From Myxococcales bacterium (lineage in GTDB: Bacteria; Myxococcota; UBA727; JABDBI01): a DNA stretch of 64,000 nucleotides. Shown here one piece after another: positions 39,020 through 47,919 of this stretch; the stretch's first letter is position 1; the number at the start of each line of letters is the position of its first letter. The stretch covers positions 1,719,381-1,783,380 of the forward strand of contig CP060221.1 in NCBI GenBank assembly GCA_023898405.1, read 5' to 3'. The notes under the pieces are model-generated. The model was not told the origin of the DNA, did no database searches, and worked only from the letters and a program-made list of their open reading frames with translations. Made by a program: the position numbers and the translations under genes.

Positions 39020-39452
39020 ATTGTCGTAGAAAAGTAATAAGCCGGGTTCTGTCCGCGCTGTCATTGCTGAACAGCGATGGATGGACATTCATCTGGGAGC
39101 ATTGTTGCCAATGCCCTCGAGCGGTCTCCTTAGAAATCTATCACGCGGGCAGCGTGTGGAACTTTCGTCCCAGATTTCCCCATGACCTTTCACCGGGTGG
39201 GGTTTACCGTGCCGCATTTGTCTCCAAATGCGCGGTGTGCTCTTACCACACCGTTTCACCCTTTCCGCTTGGTGATCCGATACCCAGAGGAGACGAAACA
39301 TCGGTCGCAAGTATCGGCATAGCGGAGGTTTATTTTCTGTGACACTATCCTTCAAGTCGCCTTGACCGGCTGTTAGCCGGCACCGCGCCCTATGGTGCCC
39401 GGACTTTCCTCCAAGTGCAAATGCACTCAGCGTCCACCTCTTTTTCTACGGC
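39020..39452 (-). ncRNA. rnpB: RNase P RNA, bacterial type A
   Basis: Minus-strand sequence carries the universal blocks GGAGGAAAGTCCGGGCACCATAGGGC, GGGTGAAACGGTGTGGTAAGAGCACACCG, GGCACGGTAAACCCCACCCGG and ACAGAACCCGGCTTAT; P1 pairing CGTAGAAAAAG (5') with CTTTTCTACG (3') sets the ends. Boundaries +/- 10 nt. Confidence 0.9.
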
Positions 39453-40796: not shown

Positions 40797-41687
40797 ATGT
40801 TAATCTTAAGGCTAAGCGCTATTTTATTTGTTTTGTTGTGGAATGCTTCCGTGAAAGCCTCATGCTGTGCATCGGGATCGAGCGGTGGCATTGGCCGTTT
40901 GTTGCCTTATGAAAGAGCACTGATAGAGCTTTCGCATGACGCGCACTATATTGTTGGTCAGTTTAACGAAAGTACTCGTTTTAGGGCGGGAGTAGCTGAG
41001 CCATTGCCTGTGTGGCAATTCAATCATGAGCTTCAAGTGATGACTCGCCTCGCTCCATTTTTCCTTCCTTTCATTAAGCTGCCTGTCCGTACAAAAATAA
41101 GTTCGAAAGAGACTATTTCTGCCTTAGCAGATCTCAGTCTGGGGGCACGCTGGCCCATTGTGAAGGAAAACTATTTTTTGCATTGGCCTGGATTAAACTT
41201 ATTTTCGACATTACAGATGCCTACAGGAACGAGTAGCGAAAAAAATGCTGAGTTTTCAGCAAATGGGTCCACAGGGGCGGGCGTTTGGCTTTTGAGTTTG
41301 GGGGCCAACGTAGAAAAAAGTCTTGGGAAATTTTTATGGACATTTGCTTATACCTACAGCTTTGAAACACGACTCTTTAAAAAGCATGGTTATGCTCACG
41401 GTCCTACGCATGCTCCGTCGATAAATGTATCTTTTCCGTTAATTGAAATGCACCAGCTGAGCTTTGGCTTGAGCGCTGTCTTTAATGAACCCTTTCGTTA
41501 CGATGCTAAACGAGTGCGCAATTCTTCCAATCGTAAGATAAGTCTTAGTAGTGTCTATGCATGGAAATTTCATAGTCATATGACACTTAACTGTTCTCTG
41601 GGGGCTGACATGCCGATTTATGGTTTAGGAAAAAACACCAATAGCGAAATTTTTATGCGCTTAGGTATGCGCGTTGGAGTGTTTTAA
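40797..41687 (+). CDS. Hypothetical outer-membrane beta-barrel protein (putative)
   Basis: 296 aa; signal peptide, alternating amphipathic strands, C-terminal Phe (MRVGVF). Start abuts the trxA stop. Confidence 0.45.
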   Translation: MLILRLSAILFVLLWNASVKASCCASGSSGGIGRLLPYERALIELSHDAHYIVGQFNESTRFRAGVAEPLPVWQFNHELQVMTRLAPFFLPFIKLPVRTKISSKETISALADLSLGARWPIVKENYFLHWPGLNLFSTLQMPTGTSSEKNAEFSANGSTGAGVWLLSLGANVEKSLGKFLWTFAYTYSFETRLFKKHGYAHGPTHAPSINVSFPLIEMHQLSFGLSAVFNEPFRYDAKRVRNSSNRKISLSSVYAWKFHSHMTLNCSLGADMPIYGLGKNTNSEIFMRLGMRVGVF

Positions 41688-42271
41688 TGCAAAAGATATC
41701 TTTGCTCTTGCTAATTTTTTTGACCGGATGTCAAGCTGCCTATCATGTAAAACTTGATCGTGTGCGCTCTGTTGAGCTCGACACTCCATCGCTTGCTTTA
41801 GAGGCAGCGGATGGTTCGTTTCATCGTCTTTCTAAGCTCTATAAAAAAAACCGTGGAACTGTTTTGGTTTTTTGGCAAACAGCATGTCCGTGCGTAAAAA
41901 GATATCAAAAGCGAGTCATCGATCTAAACGAGCGTTATCGGGTTCATGGAATAAAATTTCTACACCTTTCGAGCAATACTAATGAATCCTTTGAAAGGGT
42001 AAAGAATGAATACAACAAACGTCAAATTCCCCTTACTTTGATGCGTGATAATAATGCTGTGATAGCAAAAGCCTTGGGAGCTAAGGGAACACCCACAGCA
42101 ATTCTTATTGATCAAAGAGGGCGTGTTCAATTCATGGGATGGATCGATAACGAGCGTGATGTTGGTGAATCTGGGCGTATTGCTTATTTGGAAGATGCCC
42201 TCGAGCAATTTATAGGCGCTAAACCCATCAGCGTGCCAACATCTCCCATGTTTGGCTGTGCGATTTACTAG
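41687..42271 (+). CDS. Thioredoxin-fold thiol-disulfide oxidoreductase lipoprotein (TlpA/redoxin-like)
   Basis: 194 aa; lipobox LTGC; thioredoxin-fold motif VLVFWQTACPCV. Confidence 0.65.
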   Translation: MQKISLLLLIFLTGCQAAYHVKLDRVRSVELDTPSLALEAADGSFHRLSKLYKKNRGTVLVFWQTACPCVKRYQKRVIDLNERYRVHGIKFLHLSSNTNESFERVKNEYNKRQIPLTLMRDNNAVIAKALGAKGTPTAILIDQRGRVQFMGWIDNERDVGESGRIAYLEDALEQFIGAKPISVPTSPMFGCAIY

Positions 42272-42283
42272 CTCTGAATTCTG

Positions 42284-43120
42284 TTATCGATTTATAGACC
42301 AAGCACTGGCTTTTTTGTATTCGGCCATGCTGTGGGCTTGTTTCCAGCTCAGTATTTTTTGCTGTTCAAGAAGATTGGCTAAAGTAACAGCTTCAATTTT
42401 ATTGCTTATCTTTTGCAACAACTCTCCAGCGGCCTGGGCATCAGCCTGTGCTCTGTGAGCATTGTTGAGTGTGACGCCCCATCTTTGAGCAGCATCAACT
42501 AGTTTCTTGCCTTTCTTATAGCGATCCAGTTCGCAAATAAAAATATATGGATCTACCCAGGGGATATCCGGCAAAGCCATATCTACACGCGCTAGTTCAG
42601 ACTCTAAAAAGGGGCGATCAAACTTTGCATTGTAGGCTACGATAAAATCTGCATCTTTGAGAAGTTCTAAAATCTGTTGTGCTTTTGCACCAAAATGAGG
42701 TTGTCCATCAAGCATTTCATCACTTATACCAGTGATTCGTGTTATTTCGGGCGGAAGAGGCTCGCCAGTAGAAAATAATTGAGAAAAGTTATTATTTGAT
42801 GATGCATTGAATGGAACCATAGCGAGCTCAATTACACGGCAGGAGGCAGCATCGAGGCCTGTAGTCTCTACATCAAGAGCAATGAATGTTTTTTTAAACC
42901 AAGGTTTTTCTTCCACAAGAGAAAAATTTTTTAACTCTCCATTGATTTTAGCTATTTCCTTTCGAATAGATTCCAAAATTGGACTGAGCTTATTTTCTGA
43001 GGGAGAGTTATTAAAAGTGACTTCGAGAGATAAAGCGCTTGTTACAGGAGCATTTTCCATGACCGATGTCTGCTGTGCTGATTCAGTTGAAAATAAACCT
43101 AATTGGCCGTGAACGCCCAT
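42284..43120 (-). CDS. DnaQ-like 3'-5' exonuclease (DEDDh family)
   Basis: 278 aa; Exo motifs IALDVETTGLD, VAYNAKFDRPFL, HRAQADAQAAGELL; ~90-aa N-terminal extension of unknown function. Confidence 0.8.
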   Translation of the reverse strand: MGVHGQLGLFSTESAQQTSVMENAPVTSALSLEVTFNNSPSENKLSPILESIRKEIAKINGELKNFSLVEEKPWFKKTFIALDVETTGLDAASCRVIELAMVPFNASSNNNFSQLFSTGEPLPPEITRITGISDEMLDGQPHFGAKAQQILELLKDADFIVAYNAKFDRPFLESELARVDMALPDIPWVDPYIFICELDRYKKGKKLVDAAQRWGVTLNNAHRAQADAQAAGELLQKISNKIEAVTLANLLEQQKILSWKQAHSMAEYKKASAWSINR

Positions 43121-43378
43121 TTTATTCTCCTCAATGAAAATTTAAAGAAGCCCTATACTACATTGCTAAAGCCTTGGATATATCCCTTGTCCAGTCAATC
43201 TACGATAAAATATTGATGGATTCTTGTAGACCAGGTTATTGGTTAAAATATTTGACCTTTTCGAAAGAGTACATCTTCTAGCAACTTAGAAAAACTGAGC
43301 CTATACTAGACCGAAGGCCTGTGTTTTGGTGGAAGAAGATCAGTTTTATCAAATCGAATTGATAAGTAAGGATAGCTT

Positions 43379-44794
43379 ATGGGACATCTAAACGATGGAG
43401 CTAGTAGGCAATTACGTCGAAGAATCCAACAAATTGAATGTGAAATTGTGCGCCTACTCTGCGATGAACCTGATTGGCTTGATACTCATGATAGCGCGTC
43501 TTTGCGGTGGGCGTTGTCGCTTGCCCGTTTAACACGAATTAAAAATCCTGACATTTCTTTAGGGCATGCCAGCGATCGTTATCGAGCTGAATTGTATGCC
43601 TTACTTTCTGAAGCATTGCTTAACGGGATCAACAAAGAAAAAATTAAAGAGCTTCTTCCGAGTATTACCGTATTGGCTAAAAAAGAGCGCAGAGATTTAT
43701 TGTCGTTGTTTTCACTGCTCACTCCGGAAATTTTGGACGAAGCAGTACGAAGACGGCCTTTGGCATTGACTATGAGCGGTGGAGGAGGAACTGCATTTGT
43801 TTTTGTTGGTGCTCTTTACGCTCTTGAAGAAAGCGGCATTACTCCAAGTGTCATCAGTGGCTCATCGATGGGAGCAATATTGGGAGCATACCGAGCTCGA
43901 ACCAAGCACTTTTCTTTTGATGGTGTTGATGCGCTAGTAGAGAAAACTTCATGGGGAAAAATTGCACAGAGTTATTCGGGGCCAAGCCGGTTTGGCGTAC
44001 CTGCCACCTTCAGGTTATATTTGCGGGATGTAGTGGGGCACGAATTTGAATACGAAGACAGGTTCATGCGTCTTAAGGATCTTGAAATACCTTTAAGGGT
44101 ATGTGTAGCAGGTCTTTGCTCTCAGTCAAAAGAATATGATGAAGAGTTGGCTGCTTATGCGCATGCGTTTGATGAAAACCCCAAAGAAAAAAGTAGGAAA
44201 AGTAAATCTGTTATTTCTCTAATTTTGGATTTCGCTCAAAAACCTCTCAAAGCTGTTTATCTTGGAGGAGATGAACTGACAGCGGAGTTTGATGTACTTG
44301 ATGCCATAGGTTTTTCGGCCGCTATTCCAGGTATCTTTCATTATGACATTATGAGAAACGACCCTCGTATGATTGCTTTGGTGAGCAATCTTTTTGCTAA
44401 AGAAGGTATTTTTCGCTTAATTGATGGTGGTTTTGTCGACAATTTGCCTATGCAGGAAGCTATCAATGCTGTGGCCGAGGGGATATGCGATGGCTACGAT
44501 CCATTTGCTTTGGCGCTCGATAGTTTTAGTCCAGGATTTAATCGGCATATTCTTTTTTATCCCCTGATGCGTTTTGCAACAGAAAATAGCAGAGTAGGGC
44601 ATGAAGCTTCAGACTTAACTATTTTTTTTCGGGAAGTACTTTCTCCTATAAATTTGGTACCTACAAAGAAAACTTTTCAGTACGCCATTGATCATGGCCA
44701 TAGGGAATTTTCGGCTCATCTCCCTTTTATTCGTAAAATGGTTGGTCCTATCCCAGATCCAAGTTGGCTTAAAGAAAGCCTGATAAAGAATTAA
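43379..44794 (+). CDS. Patatin-like phospholipase with N-terminal helical extension
   Basis: 471 aa; glycine-rich loop LTMSGGGGTAF, nucleophile GSSMGA, catalytic Asp motif IDGGFVDNLP. Confidence 0.8.
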   Translation: MGHLNDGASRQLRRRIQQIECEIVRLLCDEPDWLDTHDSASLRWALSLARLTRIKNPDISLGHASDRYRAELYALLSEALLNGINKEKIKELLPSITVLAKKERRDLLSLFSLLTPEILDEAVRRRPLALTMSGGGGTAFVFVGALYALEESGITPSVISGSSMGAILGAYRARTKHFSFDGVDALVEKTSWGKIAQSYSGPSRFGVPATFRLYLRDVVGHEFEYEDRFMRLKDLEIPLRVCVAGLCSQSKEYDEELAAYAHAFDENPKEKSRKSKSVISLILDFAQKPLKAVYLGGDELTAEFDVLDAIGFSAAIPGIFHYDIMRNDPRMIALVSNLFAKEGIFRLIDGGFVDNLPMQEAINAVAEGICDGYDPFALALDSFSPGFNRHILFYPLMRFATENSRVGHEASDLTIFFREVLSPINLVPTKKTFQYAIDHGHREFSAHLPFIRKMVGPIPDPSWLKESLIKN

Positions 44795-44885
44795 ATTTTT
44801 TTTTAAAACAAGTTCGTTTCAAACTCAACAAAACCATTAGTGTACAGCGTAAAATAAATACGCTCACTTTTTGCTCGGGGGGCAA

Positions 44886-45743
44886 ATGGTTTTCGATTTT
44901 GATGATTTTGATGTGAGGGAGCGTTTCTACTCAATAGAAGAAAAAACCGAACAATTGCGAATGGAGTTGGATACACTCAAGCCCGAAGAACAACATGCAT
45001 TTAATGAAATTTGTGCTCAAGCATATATTTTTCACGATTCAGCGCTTGAAGGTTTAGTGGTGAGCGGTGATGAAATAAGTTCTGTTTTTAGCACCGATAC
45101 CGATGCTCAGTATATTCGCAGCAGGGTACTGCAGGAAATCCGTAATCATCGAAAAAAACTGCAGGAATTTATTAATCATGCGGCCAGAGTAAGGCATAAC
45201 AGTGCAGTCTATCGTTCAGCTGAGGTTACCATAGAGAATATTTTGGCAACTCACGAAGCTTTATTTGCGAGCGTACCAAGAAAAGAGCCTGGCCAACTGC
45301 GTTGTCAAACTCCTCTTCATATCGCTTATTTTCATGAACTCTGTGAGCCAGAAAAGATTAAAGATCGTCTTTTAGAGCTATGTGAAAAAACCAGAGATCC
45401 TGAATTTCGTACACAGCATCCCATTAATCAGGCGGTGCTCTTTCATTTTTATTTTATGCAAATTTTTCCCTTTCTAGATGGATGTGGCAAGGTTGGGCGT
45501 CTTTTTATGAATAGTTTTCTCATGCAAGGCGGCTATGAGCTAGCGATTATTCATGGAAGTGATCGGCAGCAATACTATGAGACCCTCAAGGAAGGTCCTG
45601 AATCATTGCGACTTTTACTACTAGACAGTATTGATGCTGCACTTGATTCTCGGGCTAATTTTATTAAAGAAATCGACCTTTCCCGTTCAACTGGCCGAAT
45701 TTTTTATAAAAAAACAAAAGAGTATGAGCGAGCAGTCCCTTAG
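44886..45743 (+). CDS. Fic/DOC-fold protein with non-canonical active-site motif
   Basis: Fic-like helices (AQAYIFHDSALEGLVVSGDEIS; HPINQAVLFHFYFMQIFPFLDGCGKVGRLFMNSFLMQGGY). Canonical HPFx(D/E)GNGRxxR is replaced by FPFLDGCGKVGR (45465..45500). ATG at 44886; ORF track begins at TTG 44871. Confidence 0.6.
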   Translation: MVFDFDDFDVRERFYSIEEKTEQLRMELDTLKPEEQHAFNEICAQAYIFHDSALEGLVVSGDEISSVFSTDTDAQYIRSRVLQEIRNHRKKLQEFINHAARVRHNSAVYRSAEVTIENILATHEALFASVPRKEPGQLRCQTPLHIAYFHELCEPEKIKDRLLELCEKTRDPEFRTQHPINQAVLFHFYFMQIFPFLDGCGKVGRLFMNSFLMQGGYELAIIHGSDRQQYYETLKEGPESLRLLLLDSIDAALDSRANFIKEIDLSRSTGRIFYKKTKEYERAVP

Positions 45744-45827: not shown

Positions 45828-47036
45828 ATGTTTAAAAAAATTTTTTTTAGTATGTTCTTTATTGTAGGACTATCAGCTTGTGGGGATTGGCCCTTAGGAA
45901 GCTCTAAGTCCAGTGGTGACAGCAGTACAGGCAATGAACAAAAAAATTCTGAAAACCAAAAGAATAGCAAAAATAATCGGCAATCTCAGGCCGGCTCCTA
46001 TAATATCGCTGTTGCACCAGGAGGAGGGCTTAATGCTTATACCTCTTTGTATTTAAGCAAAAAATTTGAACAGGCAGCAGGAAAAAAAATCCCTGAGCTT
46101 TTTGACCTTTATTGGGGGCTCTCTGGCGGTGCTTTAGCGGCAAGTTTATATATGACTGGCCAAGGTGATAAGGCTTTAGAAAATTTTAAAAGAGATGTCG
46201 ACAAAGCCTTTCCGACCAAAGATTCACTTATAACTAACGCCATGCCTTTGCTCTTTGGCGACCAGGGACAGATTGATGCTTTGAAAAGGTTAGCGCTGGA
46301 TGAAGATGGTCAACGAAGACAAGCATTTGAAAAAGCATTAAAAGCAAATATAGGAGAAAAGAAATTTTCTGATCAAGGACAGGATCGCTTTGTTTTTGTT
46401 GCTAGTGTTGATGCTAATCCTTATTGTTATGGCGCTCCAAGCATTAAACTTCCCCAAATATGCTCCCATAGAAATCCTGCAGGAGCGCGTGTGATAGATG
46501 GCATAGTAAATAGCTCAAATTTTCAGTTATCCGTAAGCAGTTTGTTAGGTGGATTTGCCAATTTAATACCACGAGATATTACATCTCTAAGCCTCTTTAA
46601 ACGCCAAGCACTAACAGTAGCTGCTAAGCAAGTACCTATCGTTGACGGATTTCTTATTCGCAAAGATCTGAGCGATGGTAACTCACCTTTGCCTTTGGTG
46701 ATTGATTATCTTTTGCAATTTAAAAATCAAAATAATAGCGAACATAATATTGTGGTTTTTGATAATGGTTCTGGATCAATCGCTGATTATAAAAATCAAA
46801 AATTTCGTGATGATATCGGAATTAAAAATGGTTATGCACAAATTAAAAGCGGTGGCGTTGTGATCAATATCTATTTATTGGACATGAATGTGACAAGAGC
46901 CCAATTTGATAGTTGGATATTTGATCAAAGTGACAAGCACTGGGCCGATGCAGAGCAGATGGTCGATCAAAGTGTTAGTGGATCTATAAAACAACTTTTT
47001 GATAGGGCTATCGATGCTGTAAAGAAAAATATGTAG
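45828..47036 (+). CDS. Lipoprotein with divergent patatin-like / GxSxG hydrolase motifs
   Basis: 402 aa; lipobox GLSAC; motifs VAPGGGLNAY and WGLSGGALAA in patatin-like spacing; low-complexity Ser/Asn/Gln linker after the lipobox. Confidence 0.5.
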   Translation: MFKKIFFSMFFIVGLSACGDWPLGSSKSSGDSSTGNEQKNSENQKNSKNNRQSQAGSYNIAVAPGGGLNAYTSLYLSKKFEQAAGKKIPELFDLYWGLSGGALAASLYMTGQGDKALENFKRDVDKAFPTKDSLITNAMPLLFGDQGQIDALKRLALDEDGQRRQAFEKALKANIGEKKFSDQGQDRFVFVASVDANPYCYGAPSIKLPQICSHRNPAGARVIDGIVNSSNFQLSVSSLLGGFANLIPRDITSLSLFKRQALTVAAKQVPIVDGFLIRKDLSDGNSPLPLVIDYLLQFKNQNNSEHNIVVFDNGSGSIADYKNQKFRDDIGIKNGYAQIKSGGVVINIYLLDMNVTRAQFDSWIFDQSDKHWADAEQMVDQSVSGSIKQLFDRAIDAVKKNM

Positions 47037-47106: not shown

Positions 47107-47919
47107 ATGAACAAATTAGCATTAGTTCTTGTTTTGCCATTTGTGTTTGTAGCTTGTGGCCAAGATCATGAATTTACTGAAACAAAAGATATATCTTTGG
47201 AAGATGGAGCTAGAATCGAAGAAGATATATTCAAAAATGTCGATAAAGATCCTCAGTCAATCACCAAGCCTGTTGTGCCTAAGCCAAACTTAGAAAAACA
47301 AAAATCTGAACAGAGAAAAAATGAACTCAAAGCTTTTCAAGAAAAGCTTAAAGAAGAACTTAGTAAGTTAGAAGCTAACAAAATAGCATACGATTGGGCC
47401 AAAAAGCATGAAATTTTTTTTAAAGCTGATGCGGAAAGTGCCAATGGCCGTAAAAAAAATGAGATATTACAAAATATAGGAAAGACCGAAAATTTTGTTG
47501 TGACGCTGGAGAGCGCAGTAAGTAATGCAGATTTTCCAAAAACCAATGCTGATTGGGTGAAATTGATAACAGATCCATCGAAAAAAACACATCCGCATCG
47601 CCAATTATATGATGAATTTCTTGGGGACTATCAACCCGGAGGCAATCCTGATGTTAAGTGGGATTACGAAACCATTTTAAAGCTTGCAAAAGATAAAGTA
47701 AAAAGAGTGAAAGACATCTTAGACAATCCTTATCTTTCCAAAGTAAGAGATTACGCTACGCTTAGGGAAGAATTTCAAAAGCTGTTGACCACAGATAAAA
47801 AGGATTTGGCTGAGAAGTACAAAAAAATTGATGAAAGAATAAAAGATATTGATAAAGAGCTTCGTTATCCAGACATCAGTGATTTGGTGTTTAAGCGTTT
47901 GATGGAAGCGATAAAGTAA
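47107..47919 (+). CDS. Hypothetical Lys/Glu-rich lipoprotein
   Basis: 270 aa; lipobox FVACG; highly charged, likely coiled-coil; no recognisable domain. Confidence 0.5.
   Translation: MNKLALVLVLPFVFVACGQDHEFTETKDISLEDGARIEEDIFKNVDKDPQSITKPVVPKPNLEKQKSEQRKNELKAFQEKLKEELSKLEANKIAYDWAKKHEIFFKADAESANGRKKNEILQNIGKTENFVVTLESAVSNADFPKTNADWVKLITDPSKKTHPHRQLYDEFLGDYQPGGNPDVKWDYETILKLAKDKVKRVKDILDNPYLSKVRDYATLREEFQKLLTTDKKDLAEKYKKIDERIKDIDKELRYPDISDLVFKRLMEAIK

Follow-up and report, generated by a model that had tools for sequence, protein, structure and literature searches.

The hallmark of Fic enzymes is a catalytic histidine that does not vary. To our knowledge, discussion of degenerate Fic domains has centred so far on secreted effectors, namely the Bartonella Beps and AvrB, and on a small Doc clade in which this histidine is replaced by glutamine. 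Here we describe a Fic-fold protein without the catalytic histidine, encoded in a 64,000-nucleotide stretch of a Myxococcales genome (contig CP060221.1), which we call the window and from whose first letter all coordinates are counted. Its best match in the PDB is FICD/HYPE, the metazoan ER AMPylase and deAMPylase of BiP (PDB 4U04, 6I7G). The two proteins share the Fic core, an N-terminal segment (in the window protein a putative inhibitory helix) with a gatekeeper Glu-Gly, the last arginine of the catalytic motif, the flap arginine, and H187, N209, R227 and the YY pair (window numbering). Identity is only about 23%, however, and both the membrane anchor and the TPR region of FICD/HYPE are absent from the window protein. 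Within the motif, His363 of FICD is replaced by Phe, Asn369 by Cys (Cys or Ser across the clade of relatives described below) and Arg371 by Lys, and the position of Asp367 is unconserved in the clade. The inhibitory helix of FICD has an S/T cap and the residues EGN, whereas the clade has an Asp cap and EG[V/L]. The flap of the clade is two residues longer than that of FICD and carries a conserved P-x-H-x-x-Y-F signature of its own.

Other members of the superfamily resemble the window protein in single respects. Bartonella BepC and Bep8 ('PFxxGNE') likewise carry naturally degenerate signatures on a canonical Fic fold, and BepC sets a precedent for a Fic domain acting as a binding module, its FIC domain binding GEF-H1 with no enzymatic activity detected (PMC8401265). 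The Beps are, however, secreted and host-targeted effectors with OB and BID domains that arose from FicTA toxins (class I) and diversified recently. They keep a strict PFxxGN, whereas the window clade appears cytoplasmic, chromosomal, ancient and FICD-like and has lost the Asn. In Doc clade D2 (Qx[F/Y]x[D/E][G/V]NKR) the catalytic His has likewise been replaced under selection and the replacement conserved (Khater & Mohanty 2015; PMC4454073), but these are small toxin-like proteins with a Doc-type NKR motif and a change of His to Gln instead of Phe or Tyr. Compared with the Doc toxins themselves (HxFx(D/N)(A/G)NKR), the window motif has no His and has its Lys at the Arg position, not at the Gly position; Doc toxins are preceded by a Phd-type antitoxin gene, the window Fic gene by one for a 471-aa patatin. 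AvrB of Pseudomonas syringae, in the Fido superfamily, has a Fic-type fold, lacks the catalytic signature and acts through binding (PMC4454073), but it is a type III effector without any Fic sequence motif, whereas the window protein belongs clearly to Pfam Fic and its motif, though remodelled, can still be recognised. SoFic (SO_4266), BT_2513/3CUC and CdFic share with the window protein the fold and probably also an intramolecular N-terminal inhibitory helix, although these bacterial class II Fics match it more weakly (E-values from 2e-9 to 0.4) and have the canonical HPFxxGNGRxxR, and SoFic has extra wHTH domains. None of the five motif groups of the 2015 survey corresponds to the [F/Y]PFxxxSGK clade (PMC4454073), and we found no description of a natural FICD-like clade with a His-to-Phe change in the literature searched.

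Fold, motif register and active-site elements

The Fic gene and the elements of its product that are discussed below are located in the window as follows.

44886..45743, + strand: His-less FICD-like (class II-type) Fic-fold gene, 285 aa, stop codon included; assigned from the ORF, Pfam, the FICD match and AF2/Foldseek
44886..44927, + strand: acidic/aromatic N-terminal motif M-V-F-D-F-D-D-F-D-V-R-E-R-F, with invariant columns M1, D6, D7 and F8
45033..45053, + strand: HDSALEG, counterpart of the FICD inhibitory-helix motif (S/T)xxxE(G/N), aligned to FICD 'HTVAIEG'
45291..45338, + strand: flap (target-dock) region GQLRCQTPLHIAYFHE, from the translation, aligned to FICD 'GRFRTTQ-V-LVGHHI'
45465..45500, + strand: degenerate Fic signature FPFLDGCGKVGR, from the translation, in register with HPFx(D/E)GNGRxxR

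The ATG start of this ORF is favoured over an in-frame TTG at 44871 because homologs keep the invariant M1, D6, D7 and F8 at their N-termini. The N-terminal motif is invariant or nearly so in the near family (at least 41% identity) and missing from the wider clade. The N-terminus is acidic, direct inspection of the sequence revealed no signal peptide or transmembrane segment, and a Pfam search of the 285-aa protein returned neither a TPR nor any other domain besides Fic. As judged from these sequence features, the protein is cytoplasmic, soluble and single-domain. An identical database copy is annotated 'Fic family protein [Myxococcales bacterium]'. A promoter and terminator scan around the gene gave no more sites than shuffled sequence.

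The assignment to the Fic fold, first made by a sequence-only reading of the window, is confirmed by profile, sequence and structure comparisons. Pfam Fic (PF02661) matches residues 114-212 over profile positions 2-93 of 93 at 53.4 bits (E = 4.9e-14; gathering score 24), and human FICD is found by phmmer at E = 2.8e-17. The AF2 model has a pLDDT of 87.7 and a pTM of 0.87. Foldseek assigns it a probability of 1.00 against FICD and other Fic structures; the first 23 matches are all entries for human FICD, after which comes C. elegans Fic-1, and the TM-score to FICD is about 0.7. The motif loop (residues 194-199) lies between helices 179-193 and 200-214, as in the Fic core, which bears out the expectation that the flanking helices are Fic-like.

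The motif register is likewise confirmed. FPFLDGCGKVGR falls on HPFIDGNGRTSR in three independent alignments (Pfam, phmmer and hmmalign); phmmer places the window segment 'mqiFPFlDGcGkvgRlfmN' on FICD 'vyiHPFiDGnGrtsRllmN', and the family-HMM alignment of canonical FICD-like proteins reproduces the same register. No alternative register with an intact His was found, and the three substitutions initially read from the sequence thus hold: His to Phe (F194), Asn to Cys (C200) and the first Arg to Lys (K202), with the last Arg (R205) retained. In catalytic Fics this last Arg contacts the gamma-phosphate and partners the gatekeeper Glu. The window protein consequently reads G-C-G-K where catalytic Fics have G-N-G followed by Arg. 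D198 is present at the Mg2+-binding position, which is unconstrained across the clade.

In the putative inhibitory helix, D51-S-A-L-E55-G56 aligns with T-V-A-I-E-G of FICD; the gatekeeper Glu (E55) and the Gly (G56) are retained and the S/T cap is replaced by D51. The pairing of E55 with R205, the shape of the pocket and the surroundings of F194 were taken solely from the alignment to FICD. In the AF2 model, DSSP assigns the flap as a loop and a short helix without a hairpin, at a pLDDT of about 72. R139 and H150 of the flap are common to canonical Fics, while P143, H145 and Y148 are specific to the clade.

A His-less clade in the Myxococcota

The loss of the catalytic histidine is shared by a large group of relatives. 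The His-Pro position is occupied by F/Y/W(/L/M)-P in 369 of 386 retrieved relatives and by His in none of the 369, whose general pattern is [F/Y/W]-P-F-x-x-x-[S/C]-G-K-x-x-R; orthologs thus keep the loss of His. Among the 386 sequences, F is the commonest residue at position 194 (282 sequences), ahead of Y (80) and W (4). The clade motif reads, in percent, F76/Y21 - P100 - F88 - x-x-x - S80/C10 - G99 - K86 - V83 - A/G - R100, where G99, K86 and R100 refer to G201, K202 and R205. Of the G-N-G nest of catalytic Fics, the clade retains only the second Gly. The Asn position is thus mostly Ser, with Thr, Ala or Asn in about 7%, and the Cys is peculiar to the lineage of the window protein. The Mg-ligand position varies among D (21%), E (18%), T (15%), H (10%) and K (9%). 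The clade has thus lost its catalytic His and the Asn, and an acid to bind Mg is no longer conserved. At least 95% of members keep the Pro and Gly of the loop scaffold, the Arg that closes the motif, the Arg of the flap and, beyond the motif, the N/R/YY residues, with N209 at 98%, R227 at 100% and Y230 at 99%. Conservation is also high in the inhibitory helix (H50 99%, D51 94%, E55 84% with D in 15%, G56 100%) and in the flap (R139 100%, H145 96%, Y148 100%, H150 98%, E151 84%). Canonical FICD-type proteins likewise have equivalents of R139, H150, H187, N209, R227 and Y230/231.

At 41% identity and above, 120 homologs (41-100%) carry the same His-less feature, which by sequence comparison far exceeds chance. 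The family as a whole gives 2601 matches at E < 1e-3, and about 140 of the best 150 clusters at 50% identity are His-less. In a neighbour-joining tree built with the motif masked, 136 His-less sequences are monophyletic and separate from all 9 canonical ones. The closest His-bearing relatives in a library of 1.84 billion proteins are FICD-type proteins. His-less members are found in Myxococcota MAGs and in cultured Sorangium, Polyangium and Minicystis, and the gene is present in 37 GTDB species loci, all of Myxococcota type. Domain fusions gave no clue to function: members of up to 788 aa have N-terminal extensions without a Pfam domain, save for a single fusion to YjeF/Carb_kinase, which could stem from faulty gene calling.

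The distribution of the gene tracks the species phylogeny, and its neighbourhoods are stable, chromosomal and of housekeeping character (polA, tsaD, RNase P RNA, lysA/argH, mraW/ftsI), with no mobile or defence island. Among six orthologs, pN is 0.07-0.35 and pS 0.76-0.97, and since synonymous sites are saturated, selection is stated here qualitatively, without a dN/dS figure. Across 53 sequences spanning down to 40% identity, 33 columns are invariant. As read from these alignments, the Fic gene evolves under strong purifying selection and the His-less clade is large, old and Myxococcota-wide, not an isolated oddity.

Gene neighbourhood and the patatin link

The genes surrounding the Fic gene are the following.

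42284..43120, - strand: RNase T/DnaQ-like exonuclease (Pfam RNase_T 3.5e-24), divergent from the patatin gene
43379..44794, + strand: upstream patatin-like phospholipase, 471 aa (Pfam Patatin 7.9e-20), 91-nt gap to the Fic gene
45828..47036, + strand: predicted lipoprotein with weak patatin-like motifs, 402 aa (Pfam Patatin 24.3 bits, cut-off 27.7)

The initial description of the Fic gene as lying between two patatin genes applies in full only to the upstream side. The upstream protein is a solid patatin whose motifs are intact, including in an alignment to PlpD: GGG, GxSxG (GSSMG) and DGG. The downstream lipoprotein stays below the Pfam cut-off; it matches a CBASS lipase model at 1.9e-4, its GGG, G-L-S-G-G and V-D-G motifs align with a CapV-type phospholipase, and its alignment to 9iom spans GGG and GxSxG, which makes a patatin assignment weak but consistent at the motifs. 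Homologs of the lipoprotein (44-47% identity) stand beside a Fic gene only in loci L007 and L008. A two-patatin arrangement as a conserved system was rejected, the downstream gene being limited to the closest relatives and the upstream link to some lineages, with many other genomes lacking it.

No neighbour is linked to the Fic gene more widely than the upstream patatin, found with it in 13 of 37 species loci. In synteny groups A, C and D the patatin gene precedes the Fic gene, both being on one strand; over these groups the identity of the Fic protein to that of the window falls from 86% to 32%. In reciprocal look-ups, a Fic gene is located 0.3-1.4 kb downstream of the patatin gene in 2 of 4 cases, and many Fic and patatin homologs are on contigs of identical size, including contigs of 3.5-8 kb. 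The link is missing from synteny groups B and E and from loci L044, L045, L047 and L048, and a class IV aminotransferase gene often lies between the two genes. The pair is moreover part of a longer conserved block of RNase T, FHA, patatin, Fic, TPR and thioredoxin genes, and plain synteny retention therefore accounts for much of the linkage. The RNase T gene, a member of the same old block, adjoins the patatin gene in L007-L012, L046 and L049. Overall, at least five synteny groups are present and no operon partner conserved throughout the clade was found.

Possible functions of the His-less Fic proteins

On balance, we lean towards the window Fic protein being a conserved non-catalytic binder or regulator, a natural 'substrate trap' of sorts, by analogy with the H363A variant of FICD. 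A single ancient change would have turned the catalytic loop into [F/Y]-P-F-x-x-x-[S/C]-G-K-[V/I]-[A/G]-R in a vertically inherited, FICD-like Myxococcota clade of class II type with an N-terminal inhibitory helix. An aromatic residue would then occupy the place of the general base/acid His, with the Asn gone and the Mg2+-binding acid unconserved. With these three elements lost, AMPylation, deAMPylation and phosphocholination by the known Fic mechanism are most likely impossible. Purifying selection appears to have kept the loop scaffold with its Gly/Lys/Arg anion nest, the gatekeeper Glu putatively paired with the last Arg, the flap Arg within a highly conserved flap, and the post-motif N/R/YY typical of FICD-type proteins, and it is from these retained elements that we infer a non-catalytic binder. 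That the same loss of His is kept across hundreds of relatives makes such a binder probable, as opposed to a broken enzyme. A loop of a partner protein would dock on the flap, the former active site may hold a phosphate-bearing group, and the partner would be regulated or sequestered without being modified. In FICD, His363Ala abolishes both AMPylation and deAMPylation and leads to a long-lived complex with BiP-AMP (PMC8373988). Speculatively, such a partner could be the patatin lipase encoded next to it, the sole candidate in this lineage, or a TPR protein in others.

It is conceivable, if rather unlikely, that the clade represents a natural reader or sensor on the FICD scaffold, whose target would be a partner carrying AMP or another phospho-modification, or else an amphipathic ligand with a phosphate. 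Recognition would proceed via the retained flap and the Lys/Arg anion nest, and the signal would be passed on without catalysis. Partners would be lineage-specific and encoded nearby, either the patatin lipase or a 530-aa TPR protein, the latter mirroring the fused TPR-Fic design of FICD.

Doc and AnkX illustrate that Fic chemistry can change through changes of the motif. Motif variants of the Fic fold perform other reactions (PMC8401265, PMC4454073), the Doc clade with His changed to Gln has been argued to be possibly active, and residual activity persists in the His-to-Ala variant of IbpA according to the 2015 Fic survey (PMC4454073). The window clade could accordingly be catalytic through another base or nucleophile, perhaps with another donor or substrate, which we regard as possible but not probable. 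Candidates would be flap His145 or His150 with Glu151, or Ser/Cys200 with Lys202, and residues near the active site are strongly conserved (H145, Y148, H150 and E151 as given above, S/C200 90%, K202 86%). These same conserved polar residues could make up a new catalytic centre, an observation that runs counter to a non-catalytic binder. The flap, modelled at lower pLDDT and not as a beta-hairpin, and the want of a gene neighbour shared by the whole clade also count against such a binder. However, H150, R139, H187, N209, R227 and Y230/231 also occur in canonical FICD-type proteins, and shared structure therefore explains their conservation. Position 200 admits Thr, Ala or Asn, as an essential nucleophile seldom would, and the metal-ligand site shows no constraint. 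The gatekeeper Glu and its Arg have been kept as the pair of the canonical autoinhibited arrangement, and no conserved enzyme-like operon partner was found.

Dedicated regulation of the adjacent patatin is a distinctly doubtful role: by analogy with cofactor-activated patatins, the Fic protein would bind a phosphate-bearing lipid or nucleotide and control the lipase. The upstream position of the same patatin family in groups A, C and D, the reciprocal look-ups and the shared small contigs speak for it, as does the binding of farnesyl diphosphate by the FICD active site at 60 nM. FICD binds this ligand via N369, R371 and D367-Mg, however, which are precisely the residues altered here (PMC12974487), and the link to the patatin is absent from two synteny groups and four further loci, often interrupted by the aminotransferase gene and embedded in the longer synteny block.

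We rejected as very improbable a role in defence or in a toxin-antitoxin system, whether as a SoFic-like protein or as a FicT toxin that inhibits itself intramolecularly: the PADLOC SoFic and PDC-S04 models match at 1e-16, but the SoFic match is partial and its 59 bits reflect generic Fic similarity, the NCBIfam SoFic equivalog NF046030 reaches 18.8 bits where 550 are required, toxicity depends on the catalytic His, which is missing, no small antitoxin ORF lies beside the gene while the inhibitory-helix counterpart is inside the protein itself, and the gene follows the species phylogeny in stable housekeeping neighbourhoods. A decaying relic drifting without function, to which the loss of the catalytic triad-equivalent residues might point, is scarcely credible and is refuted by the low pN at saturated synonymous sites, the invariant columns, the highly conserved replacement motif and the retention of the gene in a small genome (contig of about 2.5 Mb). 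The clade-wide loss of His under purifying selection fits the original proposal of a pseudo-enzyme, a scaffold or an altered chemistry, and does not fit decay.

The database names 'Fic family protein' and 'protein-threonine AMPylation protein' probably overstate the function of the clade proteins. A whole bacterial lineage keeps a FICD-like Fic with Phe or Tyr in place of His as a long-standing, stable chromosomal gene. As a non-catalytic binder, this protein would add a bacterial pseudoenzyme with a housekeeping role to the AMPylase family, and it could be used as a natural 'substrate trap', available without engineering, in the search for Fic targets. Should it prove catalytic, a new Fic chemistry would be defined. 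Both possibilities are testable, as cultivable Sorangium and Polyangium carry orthologs. Should the reader or sensor role prove true, the clade could also bear on the origin of the metazoan BiP-AMPylase, its nearest catalytic relatives being eukaryotic FICD proteins.

Fic fold and motif register

The Fic gene is a single open reading frame:
44871/44886-45743 (+), Fic-fold protein
Homolog N-termini start M-x-F-D-F-D-D-F-D-V-R with M1, D6, D7 and F8 invariant, and the start codon was therefore assigned to the ATG at 44886, giving a 285-aa product. Nucleotides 45465-45500 encode FPFLDGCGKVGR. Residues 114-212 align to the entire Pfam Fic/DOC model (53.4 bits, threshold 24). Human FICD, the AMPylase/deAMPylase of BiP, is the top phmmer match among all PDB sequences (E=2.8e-17), its 'vyiHPFiDGnGrtsRllmN' aligning with 'mqiFPFlDGcGkvgRlfmN' of the window protein, and canonical FICD-type proteins occupy the same motif columns in an alignment to the family HMM. 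Because the three alignments agree, the motif register is secure: compared with HPFx(D/E)GNGRxxR, the translated protein has Phe for His (F194), Cys for Asn (C200) and Lys for the first Arg (K202), and retains the last Arg, R205. AlphaFold2, given an alignment of 53 sequences, predicts the structure with confidence (pLDDT 87.7, pTM 0.87). When Foldseek compares this model with the PDB, every one of the top matches is a FICD entry (E about 1e-10, TM about 0.7), and other Fic proteins come next. The Fic fold and all three substitutions proposed in the sequence-only reading are thus confirmed, with a significant Fic match and no Fic motif elsewhere that has an intact His.

The His-less clade and its distribution

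Searching 5.8 billion proteins by word index gave 145 relatives. The best 120 share 41-100% identity at about 280 aa and none carries His at the catalytic position, extending the loss to orthologs. With phmmer run exhaustively against 1.84 billion cluster representatives, 2601 matches reached E<1e-3 (218 at E<1e-10); [F/Y/W]-P-[F/Y/W]-x-x-x-[S/T]-G-[K/R]-x-x-R is found in about 140 of the 150 best, and only nine canonical HPFxDGNGR proteins (E 1e-16 to 1e-13) occur among the best matches listed. After pooling, 369 of 386 retrieved sequences are His-less. Judged from these sequences, loss of the His is a family trait and no accident.

Residue frequencies (%) over the 369 His-less sequences, numbered as in the window protein, with canonical role
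194: F 76, Y 21, W 1; catalytic His
195: P 100; loop scaffold
196: F 88; loop scaffold
198: D 21, E 18, T 15, H 10, K 9; Mg2+ ligand
200: S 80, C 10, T 4, A 2; Asn
201: G 99; anion nest
202: K 86, R 6; first Arg
205: R 100; last Arg
209: N 98; post-motif

Since Ser dominates position 200, the Cys of the window protein is a lineage-specific version of a clade-wide Ser. A crude neighbour-joining tree, built after removal of the twelve motif columns and without bootstraps, places 136 sampled His-less sequences in one clade with all nine canonical sequences outside, a topology consistent with a single ancient remodelling of the catalytic loop. The N-terminal motif M-x-F-D-F-D-D-F-D-V-R-x-R-F (44886-44927) shows little or no variation within the near family (at least 41% identity), is without counterpart in the wider clade and could be a short interaction motif. 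One 788-aa clade member (P0200) also carries the NAD(P)HX repair domains YjeF_N and Carb_kinase, a fusion that may be real or may be an artefact of gene calling; in other long members the N-terminus is extended by 200-500 aa without a Pfam domain.

Scanning GTDB with one genome for each species yielded 37 loci, all in Myxococcota-type MAGs (labelled Myxococcales, Kofleriaceae, Haliangiales or 'Deltaproteobacteria'). A search from a distant member also located clade proteins in cultured strains of Sorangium, Polyangium and Minicystis, where 'Huntingtin interacting protein E-like' and 'Fic family protein' are among the annotations. A protein identical to that of the window lies on a 2.5-Mb contig and is named 'Fic family protein [Myxococcales bacterium]'. 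Myxobacterial genomes are usually far larger and GC-rich, and the lineage carrying the window, at about 39% GC, looks atypical. Among the matches listed from the 1.84 billion representatives, the closest His-bearing relatives are eukaryotic FICD-type proteins (P0266, with 724 bits to human FICD; P0241; and P0265, which has TPRs). The sequences hint at a specific relationship between the myxobacterial His-less clade and FICD.

Residues kept and lost, and a proposed role

With canonical FICD-type proteins the clade shares a helix equivalent to the inhibitory one (H50 99%, E55 84% with Asp 15%, G56 100%), flap residues R139 (100%) and H150 (98%), and H187, N209, R227 (100%), Y230/Y231 and R205. 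Specific to the clade are motif residues F194, S/C200, K202 and V203, D51 in place of an S/T helix cap, a hydrophobic V/L57-V58 after the gatekeeper Glu-Gly where canonical proteins have Asn-Thr, and a flap longer by two residues with a conserved P143-x-H145-x-x-Y148-F149 signature. The Fic His acts as general base in AMPylation and general acid in deAMPylation. In a FICD-farnesyl-diphosphate structure the diphosphate is bound by N369 and R371, and D367 holds Mg2+ (PMC12974487). The residues changed in the clade are exactly those the chemistry needs; the scaffold and its nest of positive charge are preserved, as are the target dock and the Glu-Arg pair.

Our functional readings draw on the sequence and the predicted model. 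On balance we lean towards a conserved non-catalytic Fic-fold protein, a putative natural analogue of FICD His363Ala, in which both AMPylation and deAMPylation are abolished and a long-lived complex with AMPylated BiP forms (PMC8373988). A partner would dock via the flap, a phosphate-bearing group possibly held in the Lys/Arg nest, and the partner would be regulated or sequestered and left unmodified. BepC, whose Fic domain works by binding GEF-H1 with no activity detected (PMC8401265), is a precedent for a Fic domain as binder. The main rival, which we consider rather unlikely, is an enzyme of altered chemistry using clade-specific polar residues, for which H145, Y148, E151, S/C200 and K202 are candidates.

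Gene neighbourhoods and place among Fic proteins

At least five synteny groups were distinguished, and further contexts occur in Minicystis and another MAG, in the latter of which lysA again adjoins Fic.

Synteny groups, with Fic identity to the window protein
A, 51-86%: RNase T(-), patatin(+), Fic(+)
B, 47-50%: S49 peptidase, ETF, PspA, amine oxidase(-), Fic(+), TPR(-); without patatin
C, 44-46%: response-regulator-DnaJ-TPR(+), patatin(+), class IV aminotransferase(+), Fic(+), 530-aa TPR protein(+)
D, 32%: patatin(+), Fic(+)
E, about 30%: ftsI/mraW(-), Fic(+), argH(+), lysA(+)

Lipase-type genes within 14 kb
43379-44794, patatin
45828-47036, patatin-like lipoprotein, 402 aa
55361-57262 (-), class 3 lipase (PF01764), 633 aa

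The sequence-only reading had placed the Fic gene between two patatin genes. The upstream patatin stands, its family being linked to Fic in 13 of 37 species loci; the downstream lipoprotein gives only a sub-threshold patatin match and adjoins Fic only in the closest relatives. Lipoprotein genes 45828-47036 and 47107-47919 are without clear family. Many Fic and patatin homologs lie on contigs of equal size, including contigs of 3.5-8 kb, and reciprocal look-ups from four divergent patatins found Fic 0.3-1.4 kb downstream of two and none by the other two. An old synteny block reads RNase T(-), FHA protein(-), [response regulator-PatA_N-DnaJ-TPR](+), patatin(+), [class IV aminotransferase](+), Fic(+), TPR(+), thioredoxin.

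Synteny block in the window and two relatives' loci
window, 41687-45743
L046, 2386-12053
L049, 4548-12590

Part of the lineage keeps this block; L047 and L048 have it broken, the latter with an integrase gene after the aminotransferase. As the patatin-Fic pair lies inside this longer conserved block, retained synteny accounts for much of the linkage. Functional coupling of the two is possible on gene order, but a dedicated patatin regulator, the sub-hypothesis that the 13 linked loci favour, is weakened by this retained synteny and seems improbable.

In 11 loci (L017, 7011-8603; L046, 10037-11629; L049, 8796-10439; also L019-L025 and L027) the gene immediately downstream of Fic, on the same strand, encodes a TPR protein of about 530 aa; no homolog lies within the 64-kb window. 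The adjacency is reminiscent of FICD, in which TPR and Fic are fused. In L004, L013, L014 and L016 another TPR protein, of 259 aa, lies downstream of Fic in convergent orientation. The window carries polA, tsaD, thioredoxins and a full-length bacterial class A RNase P RNA gene (39022-39449, minus strand, 291 bits), which confirms it as ordinary core chromosome; tRNA and mobile-element signals are absent near the Fic gene.

Defence-system models give generic Fic similarity only, and a defence or toxin role is effectively excluded. Gene decay is effectively excluded as well: six orthologs show non-synonymous differences of 0.07-0.35 versus pS of 0.76-0.97, strong purifying selection in a qualitative sense, as synonymous sites are saturated.

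By profile and fold the window protein belongs to the Fic/Fido family. It lacks defining features of catalytic Fic enzymes, the His and the Asn-Arg nest, and the Mg-ligand position varies in the clade. FICD orthologs have TM and TPR regions, whereas the window protein has neither, and it failed the defining tests for Doc, SoFic and FicTA. Degenerate Fic domains as such are already known. The sole His-less group among five motif groups in a 2015 superfamily survey is a Gln-bearing Doc clade (PMC4454073). We found no description of a natural His-to-Phe, FICD-like, chromosomal clade in open-access papers and bioRxiv, and no model specific to it in NCBIfam release 20. The His-less clade leaves the current understanding of Fic proteins standing and adds a large pseudoenzyme-like family that is open to testing and has eukaryotic FICD proteins as its nearest catalytic relatives.
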